Assembly: GCA_964611205.1 (NCBI GenBank)
Contig: CAZSZB010000002.1
Span: 10,609 to 74,608, forward strand
Length of the DNA stretch: 64,000 nt
Origin: an uncultured Candidatus Saccharibacteria bacterium
GTDB lineage: Bacteria; Patescibacteriota; Minisyncoccia; Phycocordibacterales; UBA918
Reading direction: 5' to 3'
Under the pieces are notes generated by a model that ran no database searches, was not told the origin of the DNA, and saw only the letters and a program-made list of their open reading frames with translations. The translations under genes and the position numbers were made by a program. Positions 3,854-61,903 of the stretch are shown one piece after another (position 1 is the first letter of the stretch; every line of letters begins with the position of its first letter).

Positions 3854-4759
3854 CTATTTCATTGCTTCTACCCCCGCGGTTATTTCTGACACCTCAGCTG
3901 TAATGGCCGTCTGGCGAGCTTTGTTATATTTAATTGTTAAAGCTTTGATTACTTCCTTGCTTTTATCGGTAGCATTCTTCATTGCCACCATTCGAGCAGA
4001 ATGCTCAGACGCTTTGCTCTCCAAAAGAGCATGATAAATAATAATTTCAATCAAGCGTGGTATCAGGGATTTTAAAACCTCTTCTGCTGAAGGTTCGATG
4101 GTATAGGACACAATAGCTGTAGCCGGCTCTATTTCTTCACTAAATTTTCCTTTTTTAGGACGGATACCGCGTAAAATATAATGAATTTCTGCTGGATCAA
4201 GCGGTAGAATAGTACGCTTAGTCGGCAACTGTTCGAAAGTAGAAAGAAAATTCTGATAAATAATTTCAATTTCTTTGTAAGCTCCTGTATTAAATCTGTC
4301 TAAAATAACTTTAGACATTTCATAAATATCTGCCATCGTAACAGCATCCGAAACATTATTATGCTCTTCAATGATTTCAAGCTTTTCGCGACGTGCAAAA
4401 TCCCCGGCTTTGCGACCAATACAAATGACTTCTATTTCTGCTCGGTACTTGTGAACTACCTCCTCGGCTTTTTTAATAACAGCACTGTTAACACTACCAG
4501 CCAAACCCTTATCACTAGTGACAATAACCAAAATCCTTTTACCTTCTTCTTTCTTGGTAGTGTAATTGCTGTGTCTTAAGTCTGGTGAGCTAGCTAGACG
4601 AGAAAGAATTCGCATAGCAGCGTGGACATACGGCCGACCAGCGAAAGCTCGTTCTTGAGCTTTACGCATCTTAACCGCTGAAACAGACTCCATGGCTTTG
4701 GTTACCTGTCCGGTTTTCTTGGTAGAAATTATTTTGTTTTTTACTTGTTTAAGTGCCAT
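3854..4759 (-). CDS. atpG: ATP synthase F1 gamma subunit
   Basis: 301 aa. Lies between atpA and atpD. The N-terminal MALKQVKNKI..TKAMESV motif is typical of gamma. Confidence 0.9.
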   Translation of the reverse strand: MALKQVKNKIISTKKTGQVTKAMESVSAVKMRKAQERAFAGRPYVHAAMRILSRLASSPDLRHSNYTTKKEEGKRILVIVTSDKGLAGSVNSAVIKKAEEVVHKYRAEIEVICIGRKAGDFARREKLEIIEEHNNVSDAVTMADIYEMSKVILDRFNTGAYKEIEIIYQNFLSTFEQLPTKRTILPLDPAEIHYILRGIRPKKGKFSEEIEPATAIVSYTIEPSAEEVLKSLIPRLIEIIIYHALLESKASEHSARMVAMKNATDKSKEVIKALTIKYNKARQTAITAEVSEITAGVEAMK

Positions 4760-4779
4760 AAAATAATGCGAGGATCTTC

Positions 4780-6351
4780 TTAAGCAACAGGTTTGTAGTT
4801 TTGAGGGTGGGCTTCTTTATAGTCTTTAATAGCTTTATCGAGCTTTTCTATTATTTCGTCAGTAAGTTCACGACCTGTTTCAATGTCGGTTAAAATCTCC
4901 TTTCGATCACGTTCTACAAACTCGATAAAAGTCTGTTCAATCTTTCGAGTATTTTCTACTGGGGCTCCAAAGAAGATACCTTGGTTAGCGGCGTAAATAG
5001 CAATCACTTGTTTTTGGAATGGAACCGGTTGGTTTTGGCCCTGTTTCAACAACTCAACATATTTACGACCTGATTCGATACGATTTTTTGTATCTTCATC
5101 AAGATCTGAAGCAAATTGCATAAAAGCCTCTAACTCTCTGAATTGTGCCAATTCAAGACGAATCTTACCTGACACTTTCTTCATCGCTTTAGTTTGAGCG
5201 GAAGAACCTACTCGAGATACAGAAATACCGACATCCAGAGCTGGGCGGATACCTTTATTAAACAAATCAGTATCTAGGAAAATCTGACCATCAGTGATTG
5301 AAATCACGTTAGTTGGAATATAAGCAGACACGTCACCTTCTTGGGTCTCAATAATAGGCAGGGCAGTAATCGATCCACTACCGAGTTCAGCTGAGAGTTT
5401 AGCAGAACGCTCTAATAATCGAGAGTGGAGATAAAAGATATCACCTGGATAAGCTTCGCGTCCCGGCGGACGACGTAGAAGTAGAGACATTTGTCGATAG
5501 GCATTAGCGTGTTTAGATAAGTCATCCAGAATAATCAACACGTCTTTACCTTGCTGCATAAAATATTCACCAATAGCCATGCCTGCAAATGGTGCCAAGA
5601 AAAGAAGTGGTGACGCTTCTGAAGCTGAAGTAGCTACTATTGTTGTGTATTCCATTGCTCCGGCTTCTTCTAACTTAGCCATGATGCTTACAGTTTTTGA
5701 ACGTTTCTGCCCAATAGCTACATATATACAAATTGGTCTTTTTTCTGCTGGCTCGTGTTTCTGGTTGATGATTGTGTCAACAGCAATGGTTGTTTTACCA
5801 GTCTGTCGGTCACCAATAATCAACTCTCTTTGTCCACGACCGATAGGAATCATAGAGTCAATAGCTTTGATACCAGTGTGGATAGGTTCATTAACACTTG
5901 AACGATCCATCACCCCATAAGCAACTCGCTCGATTGGCATGTCTGCTTCCCCTTTTACTGCACCCTTACCGTCAATTGGCTCACCAAGTGGACTGACCAC
6001 TCGTCCAACTATTTCTGGACCAACTGGGATAGAAAGTAGTTTTTCAGTTCGCATTACCCGCATACCCTCTTTTACCCGAGTAGATTCGCCTAGCACTACT
6101 ACTTTAACCACGTCTTCTTCCAAGTTGAGGATCAGACCATAGAGAGCATCCTTAGCAGCAATCGTTTCAGCCAGTGATTTGCCGTCACTATCAGAAAACA
6201 CCACCATTTCCATCATCTGGGCTTCCGAAAGACCGTCAATTTCAGCAATTCCGTCACCAACTGCTGTAACCACACCGATTTCTTTCGGTGCCGATGACAG
6301 GTCGATGTTTTCTATTTCTTGCTTTATTTTATCTATAATGACTGAGCTCAT
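4780..6351 (-). CDS. atpA: ATP synthase F1 alpha subunit
   Basis: 523 aa. Walker A GDRQTGKT. Conserved alpha-subunit blocks. Confidence 0.95.
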   Translation of the reverse strand: MSSVIIDKIKQEIENIDLSSAPKEIGVVTAVGDGIAEIDGLSEAQMMEMVVFSDSDGKSLAETIAAKDALYGLILNLEEDVVKVVVLGESTRVKEGMRVMRTEKLLSIPVGPEIVGRVVSPLGEPIDGKGAVKGEADMPIERVAYGVMDRSSVNEPIHTGIKAIDSMIPIGRGQRELIIGDRQTGKTTIAVDTIINQKHEPAEKRPICIYVAIGQKRSKTVSIMAKLEEAGAMEYTTIVATSASEASPLLFLAPFAGMAIGEYFMQQGKDVLIILDDLSKHANAYRQMSLLLRRPPGREAYPGDIFYLHSRLLERSAKLSAELGSGSITALPIIETQEGDVSAYIPTNVISITDGQIFLDTDLFNKGIRPALDVGISVSRVGSSAQTKAMKKVSGKIRLELAQFRELEAFMQFASDLDEDTKNRIESGRKYVELLKQGQNQPVPFQKQVIAIYAANQGIFFGAPVENTRKIEQTFIEFVERDRKEILTDIETGRELTDEIIEKLDKAIKDYKEAHPQNYKPVA

Positions 6352-6384
6352 AATGAATGATTTATTTTAGTGGATAATTTGTTG

Positions 6385-6765
6385 CTAGGTGGTTAATGCC
6401 CGGTAAAGGTTGACCAACTTTGTTTTATAACTTTTGTCTAATATTTTATTATTAGCTTCTACTAGCCATCCCCCAACTATGGTGGGGTCGATAACAACTT
6501 CTGGTTCACCAGTAGCTGCTAATTCTGCTAAAGCTTCTTTTATTTTAGCTAATTCTTTCTCGTAGACATTGTCGTTTGGAACTACTACTGTAATTTTATT
6601 TGTGCCAGTAGCTTCTAATACCTTCAAAACACCACGCAGAATCGGAGCATAAAGTCTCTGGTGACCTCTTTCTTTAAGAGTGCTTTGTAGTCCTTTTATA
6701 ATTTTATCTAGGCTATCGCCTGTTTTAATTTTTTCAAGAACTGCTGTGATGTAGTTGTCTTTCAT
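6385..6765 (-). CDS. atpH: ATP synthase F1 delta subunit (OSCP)
   Basis: 126 aa ORF between atpF and atpA. Assignment rests on position in the operon and size. Confidence 0.65.
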   Translation of the reverse strand: MKDNYITAVLEKIKTGDSLDKIIKGLQSTLKERGHQRLYAPILRGVLKVLEATGTNKITVVVPNDNVYEKELAKIKEALAELAATGEPEVVIDPTIVGGWLVEANNKILDKSYKTKLVNLYRALTT

Positions 6766-8754: not shown

Positions 8755-8985
8755 TGTGGACCAGACAGGATTCGGTCACTCTCGTGGATATTTTCTTCGT
8801 TCTATGAACTCAAAAATATCTCACTCCCTCGAATCTTACAGATTCTGTACAGGTTTCGCTCTAGCGAGCTGCAACCTTGTAATAAAATCTCCCAGACTTT
8901 ATTACACCATTCGTCGCGGTCCTCGGCTTAAGCCTGCGGACTCCGTCGCGACTCAGTTCGAATCCTGTCAAAGTCTCTCAAAAAC
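8755..8985 (-). repeat. long variant (A1) of the tRNA-linked hairpin element; ends in a third copy of the tRNA-Ala 3' end
   Basis: Read on the minus strand it has GACAGGATTCGAAC, which is the reverse complement of the tRNA-Ala T-arm 3' half. A long GC-rich hairpin follows. Then comes GTAATAAAGTC-TGGGAG-ATTTTATTAC, a hairpin with the family's TGGGAG loop. Then AGGTT..AACCT pairing and a TACAG-AAT-CTGTA hairpin. It ends ..CCGAATCCTGTCTGGTCCACA, which matches 20 nt of the tRNA-Ala 3' end. Confidence 0.5.
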
Positions 8986-9020
8986 AACAAAACCAAAGCA
9001 TTCGCTTTGGTTTTGGTTTT
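8975..9020 (-). terminator. terminator-like hairpin between elements A2 and A1
   Basis: Minus strand reads CCAAAGC-GAAT-GCTTTGG followed by TTTTGTTGTTTTTG. T-rich on both strands, so orientation is ambiguous. Confidence 0.4.
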
Positions 9021-9147
9021 TGTGGACCAGACAGGATTCGAAACATACTGTTTCAGTACAGGTTGTCAGTATTCTTAATGAATTAAGAATACTAGGCAAC
9101 CTCTTCGAATCCTGACGTAAAGCCTCCCAGGCTTTACTTCTGGTCCG
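9021..9147 (-). repeat. tRNA-linked hairpin element A2; candidate structured ncRNA or miniature insertion, built on the tRNA-Ala 3' end
   Basis: Minus strand parses as follows. CGGACCAG-AAG. Then GTAAAGCC-TGGGAG-GCTTTAC, the first hairpin. Then GTCAGGATTCGAAG-AGGTTGCC. Then a 12 bp hairpin AGTATTCTTAAT/TTAAGAATACT. Then GACAACCT, which pairs with AGGTTGCC. Then TACTG-AAA-CAGTA. Then GT-TTCGAATCCTGTCTGGTCCACA. The last 22 nt equal the tRNA-Ala 3' end. The first segments are its reverse complement, split by the YGGGAG hairpin. Confidence 0.6.
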
Positions 9148-30756: not shown

Positions 30757-31023
30757 TTAACTTCTAATCAGTTTTTCTTTCTCACTTTTAGTTAGTTTTT
30801 TCCAGGCTGCTTCTTTGGTAGCAGCAGCTGATTTGTCTGAGCATCGTGTTTGGTAGACTAACTCTACTGGTCTCCTCACCCTTGTATATTTAGATCCTTT
30901 ATCCTTACCAGTCCCTAACCCATTATGCTCGGTTAATCTTCTATCTAAATCAGTCGTAATACCTGTGTACAAGGTCTCATCTGAGCAACGCACCATATAA
31001 ACAAACCACTTACTCTTAGACAT
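30757..31023 (-). CDS. stand-alone GIY-YIG nuclease-domain protein (UPF0213/YhbQ-like)
   Basis: 88 aa. WFVYMVRC.D.TLYTGITTDL.RRL.EHN motif. Confidence 0.75.
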   Translation of the reverse strand: MSKSKWFVYMVRCSDETLYTGITTDLDRRLTEHNGLGTGKDKGSKYTRVRRPVELVYQTRCSDKSAAATKEAAWKKLTKSEKEKLIRS

Positions 31024-31028
31024 AAACG

Positions 31029-31607
31029 TTATTCTGTACGAGGAAACCAGTCAATTAACAACGCTCGTAAACTAAAGGATAGTTCTGCTTCCACGTTTTC
31101 AATAGCCATCATTTCCCACAAATCTAATAATTCTTTATATAACGGAGTATTGTAGAATCTCGTCCCGCAGGAATTAAGTTCGTAAGCTATTCCGTCTAAT
31201 ATCACATTGTAGCGATAACCAATCCCATTGTCGGTGGTCTGACAATAAGGACCTGGTTTTTGTAACTCTAAAAGATCTAACTTTTTAACCATATTCTTCA
31301 ATTTATCGAATTCGGCTCGAGGTATATAACCAGTTACAGGTTCGGGAGTTGGTTCAGTTAAAGAATGAGCTCCTATATAGCGATATTTTCGGTTAGACAA
31401 TAATTCAAAAGACGGACAGACTACTCCTGCCATACCGCACACACCTTCCTGCTCAGCTCTAATAGCAAATGAATTATCTAAAACATTTTCATCTACTGGA
31501 ATCTCATTATTATAATTAGGAGCAAAACCAGTTACATAAACATAGAAGCCAGAAAATAAACCAATCGCAAAAGTAAATGCCAGTACAAAAATTTGTTGTT
31601 TTGTCAT
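31029..31607 (-). CDS. hypothetical membrane-anchored protein
   Basis: 192 aa. N-terminal TM. Cys-containing extracytoplasmic region. Confidence 0.4.
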   Translation of the reverse strand: MTKQQIFVLAFTFAIGLFSGFYVYVTGFAPNYNNEIPVDENVLDNSFAIRAEQEGVCGMAGVVCPSFELLSNRKYRYIGAHSLTEPTPEPVTGYIPRAEFDKLKNMVKKLDLLELQKPGPYCQTTDNGIGYRYNVILDGIAYELNSCGTRFYNTPLYKELLDLWEMMAIENVEAELSFSLRALLIDWFPRTE

Positions 31608-31705
31608 TTTTTAAATTATAACCTGTTTAAATCAACTAAACATATCATATCTACATTTCTTTAATAAAATCGCAATACAAGTTATGATAGTCTCGCACAA
31701 ATACT

Positions 31706-31867
31706 GAGAGATGGCTAAGTGGAGCAAAAGTGAAGTGTTTCACTTTTGCTCCGGTCTTCGAACGAAGTGAGAAGATTGGCCGTTGTGAGCGAATGAGAAC
31801 AGGCCAAAGGAGGAAACGTAGTCGAACGCCTAATGAAGAACAAGCGTTCTTACAAAAACAAGTATAT
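31706..31867 (+). repeat. tRNA-Ser 5'-end-initiated repeat unit C1
   Basis: Begins GAGAGATGGCTAAGTGG, a copy of the tRNA-Ser 5' end. A 14 bp hairpin follows (GGAGCAAAAGTGAA-GTGT-TTCACTTTTGCTCC). Then GGTCTTCGAAC. It shares GTTGTGAG and AGGAGGAAAC with unit C2. Ends in a small hairpin. Confidence 0.5.
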
Positions 31868-32029
31868 GGAGAGATGGCTGAGTGGATGAAAAGCAAACTG
31901 CTTTGCTTTTCATCCGGTTTGCGAACCTGAGAGCAAAAAGGTCGTTGTGAGTTTACGAGCAGACCTTAGGAGGAAACCGAATCGAATGCTTATAATACAA
32001 TAAAGCATTACGTAAAAAAACAAATATAC
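31868..32029 (+). repeat. tRNA-Ser 5'-end-initiated repeat unit C2
   Basis: Begins GGAGAGATGGCTGAGTGG. The 14 bp hairpin GGATGAAAAGCAAA-CTG-CTTTGCTTTTCATCC co-varies with the C1 stem. GGTTTGCGAACC, GTTGTGAG and AGGAGGAAAC motifs shared with C1. Confidence 0.5.
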
Positions 32030-32123
32030 GGAGAGATGGCTGAGTGGATGTAATTGTCTGGGAGACAATTACATCCGACCAGAGGGAGGTGGACGAACTT
32101 GTTCGACCCGAAGCCATCTCTTC
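32030..32123 (+). repeat. tRNA-Ser 5'-end-initiated element C3 with a TGGGAG-loop hairpin and closing inverted repeat
   Basis: GGAGAGATGGCT-GAGT. Then the hairpin GGATGTAATTGTC-TGGGAG-ACAATTACATCC. Then ..GGACGAAC-TTG-TTCGACC... Then AGCCATCTCTTC. The ends are an 11-12 nt inverted repeat of the tRNA-Ser 5' end. The loop is the same YGGGAG as in elements A2, B and C4. Confidence 0.55.
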
Positions 32124-32136
32124 AAAAAGAAATAAC

Positions 32137-32223
32137 GGAGAGATGGCTGAGCGGTCGAAGGCGCACGCTTGGAAAGCGTGTGAGGGTTTACGCCCTCCGG
32201 GGGTTCGAATCCCCCTCTCTCCG
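32137..32223 (+). tRNA. tRNA-Ser (anticodon GGA), type II with long variable arm
   Basis: 87 nt. Acceptor GGAGAGA/TCTCTCC. Anticodon arm CACGC-TTGGAAA-GCGTG. Variable arm TGAGGGTTTACGCCCTCC. T-arm GGGGG-TTCGAAT-CCCCC. CCA not encoded. Confidence 0.9.
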
Positions 32224-32230
32224 CGAATAC

Positions 32231-32262
32231 AAAATAGCACCCTTTTTGGGGTGCTTATTTTG
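32231..32262 (+). terminator. terminator-like hairpin immediately after tRNA-Ser
   Basis: AAAATAGCACCC-TTTTT-GGGGTGCT followed by TATTTTGTT. Confidence 0.6.
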
Positions 32263-32265
32263 TTC

Positions 32266-32397
32266 GCGGAGAGAGGAGTAACTGTCTGGGAGACAGTTAC
32301 GTGGGATTCGAAAAGCTTTTGAGCTATTTTCAAGCTGGCGTAGAAAATAGCCAAAAGGTATACAGTCCATGTAATGGACGAATCCCCCTCTCTCCGC
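32266..32397 (+). repeat. tRNA-linked hairpin element C4, built on the tRNA-Ser 3' end
   Basis: GCGGAGAGAGG-AG. Then GTAACTGTC-TGGGAG-ACAGTTAC. Then GTGGGATTCGAAAAG-CTTTTGAGC. Then hairpin TATTTTC..GAAAATA. Then GCCAAAAGG. Then hairpin GTCCAT-GTA-ATGGAC. Ends GAATCCCCCTCTCTCCGC, copying the tRNA-Ser 3' end. Same architecture as A2 and B. Confidence 0.6.
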
Positions 32398-32474
32398 TAA
32401 ATTAAAAACCCCCATATTGCCAATTAATCTAGCGGGGGTACTATAGTGAGTAATACAAAATAATAAATTTTATT

Positions 32475-32957
32475 ATGAAATTAGTCTATGTGTCTTTGGT
32501 GGTTGTCATTATATTCATTGTCGGGGTTTTTACCTTCAGCAATTATTTAGATTTCAACACAAATACTGATAACGATACTAAATCAACCGAAATTGAAGAG
32601 GAAACTCCTAATGTGGACGAGGTTGATGAAGATTTAATCTTAGTCACTAATCCAGAACCAAATACAGTGGTAGATAACCCAATTACCATAACCGGTGAAG
32701 CCAGGGGATACTGGTTTTTTGAAGCTTCCTTCCCTATCGTAGTGACAGATTGGAAAGGTTTAATAATTGGTGAAGGTTATGCAACAGCTGACAGTGACTG
32801 GATGACTGAAGACTACGTACCTTTTACAGCTACAGTCTCTTATGATCTACCAGCCGATACTCCTTATATGCGAGGCTATCTTATTTTAATGAAGGACAAT
32901 CCTTCAGGTTTACCAGAACATGACGCGGCTATAGATATCCCCATTCTCTTTGAATAG
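32475..32957 (+). CDS. hypothetical secreted or membrane-anchored protein (possible Ig-like beta-sandwich)
   Basis: 160 aa. N-terminal TM/signal helix. Acidic low-complexity linker. C-terminal beta-rich domain. Confidence 0.45.
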   Translation: MKLVYVSLVVVIIFIVGVFTFSNYLDFNTNTDNDTKSTEIEEETPNVDEVDEDLILVTNPEPNTVVDNPITITGEARGYWFFEASFPIVVTDWKGLIIGEGYATADSDWMTEDYVPFTATVSYDLPADTPYMRGYLILMKDNPSGLPEHDAAIDIPILFE

Positions 32958-61760: not shown

Positions 61761-61780
61761 GTCGTACCGATTGCTGCCAG

Positions 61781-61903
61781 ACTAGGACTCGAAACTTACA
61801 GTTTCAGTACCCGTTGTCATTATCTTTCATTCTTCAAGATAATAGGCAACGGCTTCGAATCCTAACGTAACAGTCTCCCGGACTGTTACTAGCTTGGCAG
61901 CTC
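61781..61903 (-). repeat. tRNA-linked hairpin element B, built on the tRNA-Gln 3' end
   Basis: Minus strand parses as follows. GAGCTGCCAAGCTAG. Then GTAACAGTC-CGGGAG-ACTGTTAC. Then GTTAGGATTCGAAG-CCGTTGCC. Then hairpin TATTATCTT..AAGATAATG. Then ACAACGG. Then GTACTGAAACTGTAAGT. Then TTCGAGTCCTAGTCTGGCAGC. The last ~21 nt are identical to the tRNA-Gln 3' end and the first segment is its reverse complement. Confidence 0.6.

Follow-up and report, generated by a model that had tools for sequence, protein, structure and literature searches.

The 64,000-nt window analysed here (contig CAZSZB010000002.1 of assembly GCA_964611205.1, from an uncultured Candidatus Saccharibacteria bacterium) carries three consecutive non-coding units, C1, C2 and C3, upstream of a tRNA-Ser(GGA) gene. 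Each opens with a copy of the 5′ end of the tRNA and continues into conserved, covarying hairpins, and a further unit of related plan, C4, follows the tRNA. We read these units, tentatively and with rather less than even confidence, as small non-coding cassettes that enter or duplicate at tRNA ends, bring in a replacement end and clamp the displaced copy by pairing it with its complement. The reading draws on features that can be seen directly, namely the anatomy of C1-C3, their conservation, covariation, module sharing and mosaicism, and one filled site of a coding relative that can be set against its empty counterpart. Coordinates are positions in the window, and L-numbers (L001 etc.) label the related loci that were compared with it.

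Structure and conservation of the C1-C3 array

A first, sequence-only reading had described C1-C3 as three units in tandem, each beginning with the tRNA-Ser 5′ end. This description holds: GAGAGATGGCTRAGTGG is present as an exact match at 31706, 31869 and 32031 and with 1 mismatch at 32138, within tRNA-Ser itself, the expected number of matches being 0 (100 shuffles). The start-to-start spacing of the array is 163, 162 and 107 nt, the repeat extends for ~17 A-rich bases 5′ of each copy, and both ARAGORN and Rfam recognise tRNA-Ser(GGA) as the sole tRNA of the region. The copied segment had been put at 17-18 nt of tRNA-Ser; an end copy is indeed present, but exact identity covers 15 nt only (GGAGAGATGGCTGAG), after which C1, C2 and C3 read TGG and tRNA-Ser reads CGG. 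In this assembly, C1 carries T rather than G at 31705 and A rather than G at 31718; the strain variant L027 is intact.

Read as cassettes that fold independently, C1, C2 and C3 share an A-rich leader followed by the first 15-18 nt of tRNA-Ser (Y). Beyond what had been described, C1/C2 and C3 represent two distinct subfamilies. Members of the C1/C2 subfamily form four hairpins (P1-P4) and keep GUUGUGAG, GAGCAG and AAAGGAGGAAAC as invariant single-stranded segments. The 14-bp hairpins reported for C1 and C2 proved to be perfect inverted repeats (P1 in each unit), and the motifs said to be common to the two units were recovered (AGGAGGAAAC at 31808 and 31968; GTTGTGAG in both). The C3 subfamily comprises a 12-bp clamp between Y and its complement Y′, a long GGG-tipped hairpin (H1, a perfect 14-bp inverted repeat in C3) and a compact T-loop palindrome. 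As had been proposed, C3 ends in the complement of its own 5′ end (AGCCATCTCTTC), shares its hallmark hairpin with C4 (GTCTGGGAGAC, exact at 32056 and 32284) and mirrors C4 in plan, both being built of a closing helix (tRNA-end copy plus complement) and then a GGG-tipped hairpin. Its second hairpin, GGACGAAC-UU-GUUCGACC, is a compact form of the C4 T-loop palindrome. The TGGGAG loop named as the hallmark is present, but it is better given as a GGG triloop, closed by U-A or C-G, within a near-perfect palindrome. With C1-C3 upstream and C4 downstream, tRNA-Ser is bracketed by end-matched units, and the predicted folds of the upstream units are far more stable than those of shuffled sequences (z = -4.9 for C1, -3.4 for C2 and -6.4 for C3).

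Units of the 5′ type recur directly upstream of tRNA-Ser genes at other loci, where the first reading had suggested looking for them: C3-type units in L030, L040 and L029, and C1/C2-type units in L029, in L035/L037 and, as a fragment, in L031. Among C3-type units, the inner 37 nt are nearly invariant (CCGACC..GGAGGxGGACGAACUUGUUCGACCCGA), the long H1 hairpin covaries around its invariant GGG tip, and Y′ follows Y in an A-U to U-A exchange; pairing is kept in 95.5% of cells, and 7/30 pairs are double-changed, compared with 2.8±1.2 in shuffles. A search with a covariance model of the C3-type units (R1) gave strong scores for these four only (91-114 bits), with weak matches only to C1/C2-type units and to hairpins of 3′-type units. 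The C1/C2-type units also keep GUCGAACGCC invariant, and their P1-P3 covary: 15 of 42 pairs are double-changed (shuffles: 6.8±1.6; 0/500), slid controls collapse, and 95% of stem positions are still paired at 27% sequence divergence. In the 3′-type consensus (alignment of 17 units), compensatory changes affect 25/34 pairs.

The classes also share modules. The GGG-tipped H1 is common to C3 and the 3′-type units, and a UGUGAGC..GCGA hairpin apex is common to P3 of C1/C2 and H2 of the 3′-type units, so that C1-C3 belong to one modular superfamily, within which they form two subfamilies. Conserved loops together with covarying stems indicate a folded single strand (RNA or single-stranded DNA) under selection.

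Several tRNA-Ser genes at the compared loci carry the anticodon ACT (loop TTACTAA) and are well formed according to ARAGORN: L029 (110-197 and 2597-2684), L030 (477-564), L035 (11754-11843, -), L037 (564-653) and L040 (2139-2226, -). A serine tRNA with A34 is unusual for bacteria, and these ACT tRNAs bear 5′-type units without 3′-type units. After the first tRNA-Ser(ACT) of L029 (~270-315, +) lies a hairpin formed by a partial copy of the tRNA 3′ segment and its complement, GTTCGAATCCCTTACAGGTGTAACCTGTAAGGGATTCGAAC, lacking the usual inner modules.

As first supposed, C1-C3 are not called as tRNAs. ARAGORN returned nothing for them at default settings, with introns allowed or with a relaxed score, the relaxed runs being silent at the 90% and 85% thresholds and giving at 80% only a spurious minus-strand call that overlaps the real tRNA. 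The Rfam tRNA model (RF00005) has no hit in C1-C3 even at E<=10; a gathering-threshold Rfam scan of the whole window returned three tRNAs and nothing else, and a scan of 31500-32500 at E<=10 gave only chance matches far below threshold. Known RNA families (ribozymes, introns, HEARO/omega RNAs and Y RNA) were set aside for want of an Rfam match to the units. By eye, the GUGAG..CGAAAC apex falls one core nucleotide short of a hammerhead, and when a 3′-type unit is threaded onto a fold like that of hepatitis delta virus (HDV), the required P1 is absent.

The open reading frames (ORFs) of the region had been judged unlikely to be genes, and we concur: the six that cross it lack a Pfam match, and two of them (32044-32322 and 32054-32281) run through tRNA-Ser. 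A protein-coding reading was rejected, as the AGGAGG-like motifs come without a start codon conserved between C1, C2 and L029 and without Pfam support. Shine-Dalgarno-like purine tracts (GGGAGGUGG in C3, 32082-32092; AAAGGAGGAAAC in C1/C2, 31808-31817 and 31968-31977) are kept in all homologues, with no conserved start codon after them.

A consensus scan found a sole promoter-like site, just 5′ of C1, and the only plus-strand terminator-like site in 31400-32600 lies 3′ of the tRNA (32236-32255). With one promoter-like site before C1 and no plus-strand terminator until past the tRNA, C1-C3 are most simply taken as a leader, ~430 nt long, that is probably transcribed as part of the tRNA-Ser precursor. 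The hairpins of C1-C3 were discarded as intrinsic terminators, mixed or A-rich sequence following each of them. No internal promoter was found for any single unit: the TATAAT-like strings stop 1-4 nt short of the tRNA-end copy, which leaves too little room for them to drive it.

The array is unlikely to be an assembly artefact: a 6.5-kb sequence containing it recurs in an independent contig of 165,888 bp, and many sequencing runs contain parts of that sequence. Contigs of the same species from many runs end at 31707, 31807, 31866, 31915, 32262, 32303-32311 and 32396. These ends coincide with perfect palindromes and repeats and are therefore probably assembler breaks rather than real polymorphism; we rejected them as evidence for variation in copy number.

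Units of the 3′ type and distribution of the family

Behind each of the three tRNAs in the window stands a terminator-like hairpin, with 3′-type units beyond it (C4 after tRNA-Ser, two units after tRNA-Ala, one after tRNA-Gln), and extension of the source contig by 10 kb on each side revealed no further tRNA. A 3′-type unit begins with the reverse complement of the last ~20 nt of the tRNA, split by a hairpin of the form AGUAA-stem-(C)UGGGA(G)-stem-UUACGU (H1), and continues with a long variable hairpin (H2), a short hairpin with the loop UGUAA (H3) and a direct copy of the tRNA 3′ end. The segment X′1 is complementary to the tRNA 3′ strand by Watson-Crick pairing and does not reproduce the 5′ strand: Ala units have A3 across from U70, and Tyr units have C4 across from G69. 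The positions of all these features are collected in Table 1.

Table 1. Positions of the 5′-type and 3′-type units and of associated features in the window
Feature	Position	Strand	Details
Promoter-like site TTAATA-16-TATGAT	31661..31688	+	Consensus match only, 9/12; start would fall ~10 nt before C1
C1, 5′-type, C1/C2 subfamily	31705..31867	+	Y 31706-31722; P1 31721-31752; P2 31751-31779; P3 31776-31807, loop GUGAGCGAAUGAG; AGGAGGAAAC 31808-31817; P4 31824-31849; A-rich linker to 31867
C2, 5′-type, C1/C2 subfamily	31868..32029	+	Y 31868-31885; P1 31884-31915; P2 31914-31941; P3 31938-31967; AGGAGGAAAC 31968-31977; P4 31985-32009; then A-rich linker
C3, 5′-type, C3 subfamily	32030..32123	+	Y 32030-32047; GGG-tipped H1 32046-32076; purine-rich GAGGGAGGUGG 32082-32092; T-loop-palindrome hairpin 32091-32108; Y′ (complement of Y) 32112-32123; 114 bits with model R1
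A-rich linker AAAAAGAAATAAC, Y′ to tRNA	32124..32136	+	Forms the loop if Y′ captures the 5′ end of the tRNA itself
tRNA-Ser, anticodon GGA	32137..32224	+	ARAGORN; Rfam 56.2 bits
Intrinsic-terminator-like hairpin	32231..32261	+	With tRNA 3′ end and X′1, forms a longer palindrome, 32214-32276
C4, 3′-type	32267..32396	+	X′1 32267-32276; H1 32278-32300; X′2 32303-32312; H2 32313-32359; H3 32365-32379; direct copy of tRNA 3′ end 32379-32396; fold z -8.6
Ala-1, 3′-type after tRNA-Ala	9023..9146	-	Plan as C4
Ala-2, second, larger 3′-type after tRNA-Ala	8757..9020 (start approximate)	-	H1-like hairpin 8878-8906; different inner module; ends in second tRNA-Ala 3′-end copy 8757-8775
3′-type after tRNA-Gln	61774..61900	-	-

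A second kind of inner module, 'module B', was seen in the same slot, bounded by the inverted T-loop half on one side and the tRNA 3′-end copy on the other; it carries GGAGC..GCGAG motifs and a hairpin with the loop GCGACGGC/GACG. It occurs in the window at 8757-9020 (-), after tRNA-Trp and tRNA-Leu in L001 and L002, and after tRNA-Tyr in L002. In L033, a direct repeat (AGTGAACGA) takes the place of the terminator hairpin as spacer between the tRNA and its 3′-type unit, and tandem GGATGGTAAAGGGGACAG repeats stand at the contig end just past the unit (~1560-1618, +).

The strict form of a search pattern derived from the 3′-type units matched 8 of 185,579 species genomes, all of them Patescibacteria metagenome-assembled genomes, and gave 13 metagenome matches. 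Viral, phage and plasmid collections returned none; four scans of viral contigs found nothing genuine, and the 39 matches of the loosest pattern are not hairpins. A phage or plasmid origin was rejected, as the tRNA body alone matches those collections. Across the sampled loci and the window, ~19/26 non-redundant tRNAs have a 3′-type unit, a frequency that is biased because the loci were picked by a pattern derived from the units. Units also stand at tRNA-Trp and tRNA-Leu genes, which lie outside the search pattern (L001 and L002), and perfect copies of the last 14 nt of the tRNA occur 123-170 nt downstream of it. The superfamily is found only in Patescibacteria-labelled genomes and in unlabelled metagenome contigs. 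It is described neither in Rfam 15 nor in the literature searched (full text), an absence that is no proof of novelty. The introns reported in Patescibacteria tRNAs are group I introns in the anticodon loop (PMC13011429), a different thing from these units.

Origin of the units and competing explanations

Direct evidence of insertion comes from a coding relative. In L002 (6390-6629, -; flanks 6280-6720), a 79-aa GIY-YIG ORF lies between displaced nt 1-28 of tRNA-Tyr and an intact tRNA-Tyr gene, and L028 is arranged likewise. The original upstream region stays with displaced nt 1-28, and this displaced copy is broken by a 24-nt GC hairpin at the D-loop position. L001 and L006, which are syntenic with L002, have an empty site. 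The filled site of L002 set against the empty sites of L001 and L006 demonstrates that DNA with a replacement 5′ end can insert in these tRNA genes and leave the displaced end behind.

The non-coding units are arranged in arrays of 2-4 in L007, L032 and L038, each unit with its own terminator. Units of tRNA-Ser(GCT) in L030, L031 and L040 are mosaics of mixed H1, H2 and H3 variants, and the tRNA-Tyr units of L001 and L002 combine a common H1 with unrelated inner modules. An identical terminator-plus-unit module stands behind three different upstream sequences in L029, L034 and L035, which suggests recent movement or rearrangement; truncated or degenerate copies are present in L003, L006 and L029. 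At position 16, C1-C3 carry T and the adjacent tRNA carries C, so the units were not copied from it; T16 agrees with other tRNA-Ser genes. When the L027 strain variant is compared with 31705-31800, all 8 differences fall in C1, with 0 in ~1,180 nt of flank; in L027, the tRNA-like start is intact, one G-C pair of P1 has become A-T by compensation, the P1 loop is altered and the P3 loop has one change. In L004 (~4729-5030, +), a group-I-intron-like sequence precedes a tRNA 3′ part that ARAGORN does not call, and the 3′-type unit there is a chimera whose complement fits that tRNA and whose distal copy comes from a different one.

Were C1-C3 insertion cassettes, they would have arisen as the L002 insertion did. 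A cassette would join the end of a tRNA gene through insertion or recombination, a step shown directly for the GIY-YIG relative in L002 only. The incoming DNA would supply a replacement end, leaving the tRNA intact, and the displaced end would remain as a direct repeat; repeated events and unequal crossing-over would then build arrays such as C1-C2-C3. The array, as the probable leader of the tRNA-Ser precursor, would be processed off, and Y′ (here) or X′ (in 3′-type units) would clamp the extra tRNA-end copy so that it does not compete with the acceptor helix of the tRNA. Selection on the units may serve the element or the host.

Several established classes of small element were weighed alongside. 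Set against miniature inverted-repeat transposable elements (MITEs), the units do have inverted repeats, but these are the local tRNA end and its complement and therefore differ at every locus; no short target duplication was identified, and the copies have diverged with compensation. As for IS200/IS605 elements, H1 is unlike H3, no TnpA/TnpB/IscB-type protein is encoded within the window, and a common target-adjacent motif is missing because the tRNA-end copy is preceded by the T-stem strand, which is variable. In a comparison made by reading only, the H1 foot AGTAAC...GTTACGT departs from the attC consensus GTTRRRY at one position, and no integrase was seen. The direct repeat of att duplications is present for 3′-type units, while C1-C3 stand on the atypical 5′ side. 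At C1-C3 there is no ORF with a GIY-YIG or other match of the kind expected for a homing-endonuclease insertion. What C1-C3 do display is a terminal copy of the tRNA at the edge of each unit, shared covarying hairpins and a position beside the cognate tRNA on the same strand, as expected of tRNA-end-matched cassettes. Retrons, integron attC sites, IS605 ends and omega/re-RNA guides were likewise weighed from their anatomy, which lends them no clear support.

A number of points weigh against insertion cassettes. The 30 annotated ORFs of the window include no recombinase, transposase, reverse transcriptase or Cas gene, all being housekeeping genes except a small GIY-YIG gene 700 nt away on the other strand. 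No empty site was found for C1-C3, the close relatives compared being of the same species only, and the reading gives no account of how a cassette would come by a complement specific for each tRNA. Prevalence estimates carry the ascertainment bias noted above. The stems are almost all Watson-Crick, and the sense strand is on average only ~2 kcal/mol more stable than the antisense, so that the folding molecule may be RNA or either DNA strand. Finally, paralogues in the same genome differ by many compensatory changes while their loops are invariant; this implies long-term selection on each copy, which a host function fits at least as well as a selfish element does.

The GIY-YIG gene of the window (30757-31023, -) encodes 88 aa with GIY-YIG only and lies 700 nt upstream of C1; between the two is a 192-aa ORF without Pfam match (31029-31607). 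A GIY-YIG link as a general rule was rejected, as a phmmer search over the compared loci found GIY-YIG nowhere but in L002/L028 and, outside the array, in the window. Synteny through the flanking Gmad2 protein was dropped because its nearest homologues are <=72% identical and their loci have no tRNA.

Of the rivals, the one that survives best, though we think it unlikely, is a host-functional RNA switch or scaffold in which the units are cis-acting domains of tRNA precursors. As a switch, the copy, its complement and the tRNA's own end would offer two exclusive pairings: a closed cassette would let the tRNA fold, capture of the tRNA end would block or redirect its maturation, and a factor bound to the GGG-tipped hairpin or to the GA-rich apex would set the balance. 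As scaffolds, the units would be stable small RNAs that use tRNA-like ends for excision by RNase P and 3′ processing enzymes. Predicted folds argue for the switch. In the fold of leader plus tRNA-Ser, Y′ forms 12 bp with the 5′ end of the tRNA itself, closing a 13-nt loop, and the tRNA 3′ acceptor strand lies on Y of C3 (centroid) or Y of C2 (minimum-energy); this end-capture fold has -121.6 kcal/mol, against -109.4 for the modular fold. The same is predicted on the 3′ side, where capture and modular folds have -140.3 and -126.6 kcal/mol for Ser, -111.3 and -94.6 for Gln, and -111.6 and -109.7 for Ala, the last being marginal. In the fold of tRNA, terminator and C4, the cloverleaf is kept, the distal copy closes the acceptor and T stems, and the proximal 3′ end pairs with the complement via an extended terminator. 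At equilibrium, each unit can therefore be read as a structured D-loop or T-loop insertion between direct repeats. All these energies are nearest-neighbour equilibrium predictions that ignore co-transcriptional folding, which would close each cassette first.

A host function is further consistent with the invariant loops and junctions kept beside covarying stems, even between paralogues of one genome, with the 12-bp clamp of C3, which has the length of the acceptor plus T-stem stack, and with the presence of units at all three window tRNAs and at unselected tRNAs of L001 and L002. The C3-type units also have 4-5 G-U pairs on the sense strand and 0 on the antisense. Against it, the 3′-type units lie right behind a strong intrinsic terminator and have no promoter of their own, so most transcripts would not contain them. 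The distribution among species genomes is patchy, units are degenerate, truncated or chimeric at several loci, modules are swapped between related genomes, no partner protein or signal is known, and the energy gaps are open to the qualification just given.

A more radical proposal, which we regard as improbable, is an RNA-level device acting on tRNA ends, a new category that would join a tRNA-specific antisense segment to a conserved protein-binding hairpin. Such a device may toggle between self-pairing and capture of the acceptor and T arms (3′-type) or acceptor and D arms (5′-type) of the neighbouring tRNA; the antisense segment of 3′-type units is bipartite, split by a hairpin at a predicted three-way junction. 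Equally novel would be a small mobile element, folded into hairpins, whose single strand forms a double-stranded mimic of the tRNA that it targets.

We give little credence to integrase scars or minimal att sites, in which the direct repeats would be attL/attR blocks of deleted elements and the hairpins arm-type protein-binding DNA. The identity block of T-loop-class tRNA integration sites typically spans the T loop to the tRNA 3′ end, as the 3′ direct repeat does, and the tandem arrays look like tandem integration. However, the units are uniform in length (123-170 nt between repeats), the window ORFs include no integrase remnant, covarying stems with fixed loops fit a folded single strand rather than double-stranded binding sites, the inverted tRNA-end copy is foreign to ordinary att sites, and nothing similar was found in the phage, plasmid and viral collections searched.

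Decaying pseudogenes are disfavoured more strongly. C1-C3 would then be drifting remnants of tandem tRNA-Ser duplications, in keeping with their tRNA-Ser-like start, with the order P1, P2, P3, GGAGG..UCGAA, which loosely parallels the D, anticodon, variable and T arms, and with the two mismatches in Y of C1 in this strain. Drift is hard to reconcile with the stem pairing retained over 27% divergence and its 15 double compensations, with homologues in other organisms that keep the same invariant single-stranded motifs beside different tRNA-Ser isoacceptors, with the silence of the Rfam tRNA model and with a T16 unlike the adjacent tRNA. Least credible of all are intron-like insertions in enlarged tRNA genes (D loop in the 5′ type, T loop in the 3′ type) whose outermost copy would be the real exon: predicted equilibrium folds are indeed cloverleaves with a structured D-loop or T-loop insertion, but a complete conventional tRNA is encoded and needs no splicing, the units are too small for group I/II introns and match neither intron nor ribozyme models of Rfam, the intron-tolerant ARAGORN run at default thresholds is silent, and we know of no bacterial enzyme for such splicing.

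Significance and comparison with known systems

If insertion cassettes are the right reading, tRNA genes in at least some bacteria of the candidate phyla radiation would be systematically bracketed by cassettes made of an end copy and its complement. Their perfect palindromes are the probable cause of the breaks in short-read assemblies at these tRNA loci, and the cassettes create spurious ORFs and could mislead the annotation of tRNAs and pseudogenes. From hairpins that covary while their GGG, UGUAA and GA-rich tips stay invariant, one or more binding partners are predicted. The units raise the questions of how each tRNA is targeted, where the matching complement comes from, and whether very small genomes tolerate the cassettes or use them to control tRNA maturation. 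Should the units instead be an RNA-level device, tRNA maturation or tRNA-end surveillance would be programmable for each tRNA in reduced genomes.

Integration of prophages and genomic islands produces partial duplications of tRNA genes, with att direct repeats of the T-loop class, the incoming DNA providing a replacement end. The units resemble such att duplications in their direct repeat from the T loop to the 3′ end, in leaving the tRNA intact and in their tandem arrays. Unlike att islands, they are 100-170 nt long, non-coding and devoid of an integrase, they hold an inverted tRNA-end copy and conserved covarying hairpins, and a 5′-end version (C1-C3) exists. Free-standing homing-endonuclease genes insert at the end of a host gene together with a replacement end, an example being the GIY-YIG ORF at atp6 in Allomyces mitochondria. 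The tRNA-Tyr locus of L002 follows this plan (displaced 5′ fragment, GIY-YIG ORF, intact gene), whereas C1-C3 have no ORF and the GIY-YIG gene of the window lies outside the array on the other strand.

The REP/BIME, ERIC, BOX and Correia/NEMIS elements are, like the units, short, non-coding, multi-copy, modular, near-palindromic, co-transcribed and of uncertain function. The units differ from them in being tied to tRNA genes, in a locus-specific terminal helix made of the neighbouring tRNA end and its complement, and in having neither a short target-site duplication nor a terminal inverted repeat common to all. The units are also reminiscent of tRNA-like structures on which tRNA enzymes act (mascRNA, viral tRNA-like structures, the tRNA-like domain of tmRNA) and of ribozymes that form ends beside tRNAs (HDV-like theta ribozymes): their closing helix is acceptor-like, one hairpin derives from the T arm, and they stand directly beside a tRNA in the same transcript orientation. 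In contrast to these systems, their T loop is paired or interrupted, they match no Rfam ribozyme or tRNA-like family, and the 3′-type units are cut off from the tRNA by a terminator.

As in trp-type attenuator leaders, three segments (copy, complement and tRNA end) can pair 1:2 or 2:3, with a predicted gap between folds of 2-17 kcal/mol, but no leader peptide, ligand or terminator decision is evident and the alternative concerns the folding of the tRNA. The split tRNA genes of Nanoarchaeum, with their complementary leader and trailer, likewise join tRNA-end fragments to pairing sequences; here, a complete tRNA is present, and the unit fragments cover only nt 1-18 or 54-73 and cannot assemble a tRNA. 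None of the known systems compared unites these features; the combination of a locus-specific tRNA-end copy and its complement with shared covarying hairpins, at both ends of tRNA genes, sets the units apart from them.

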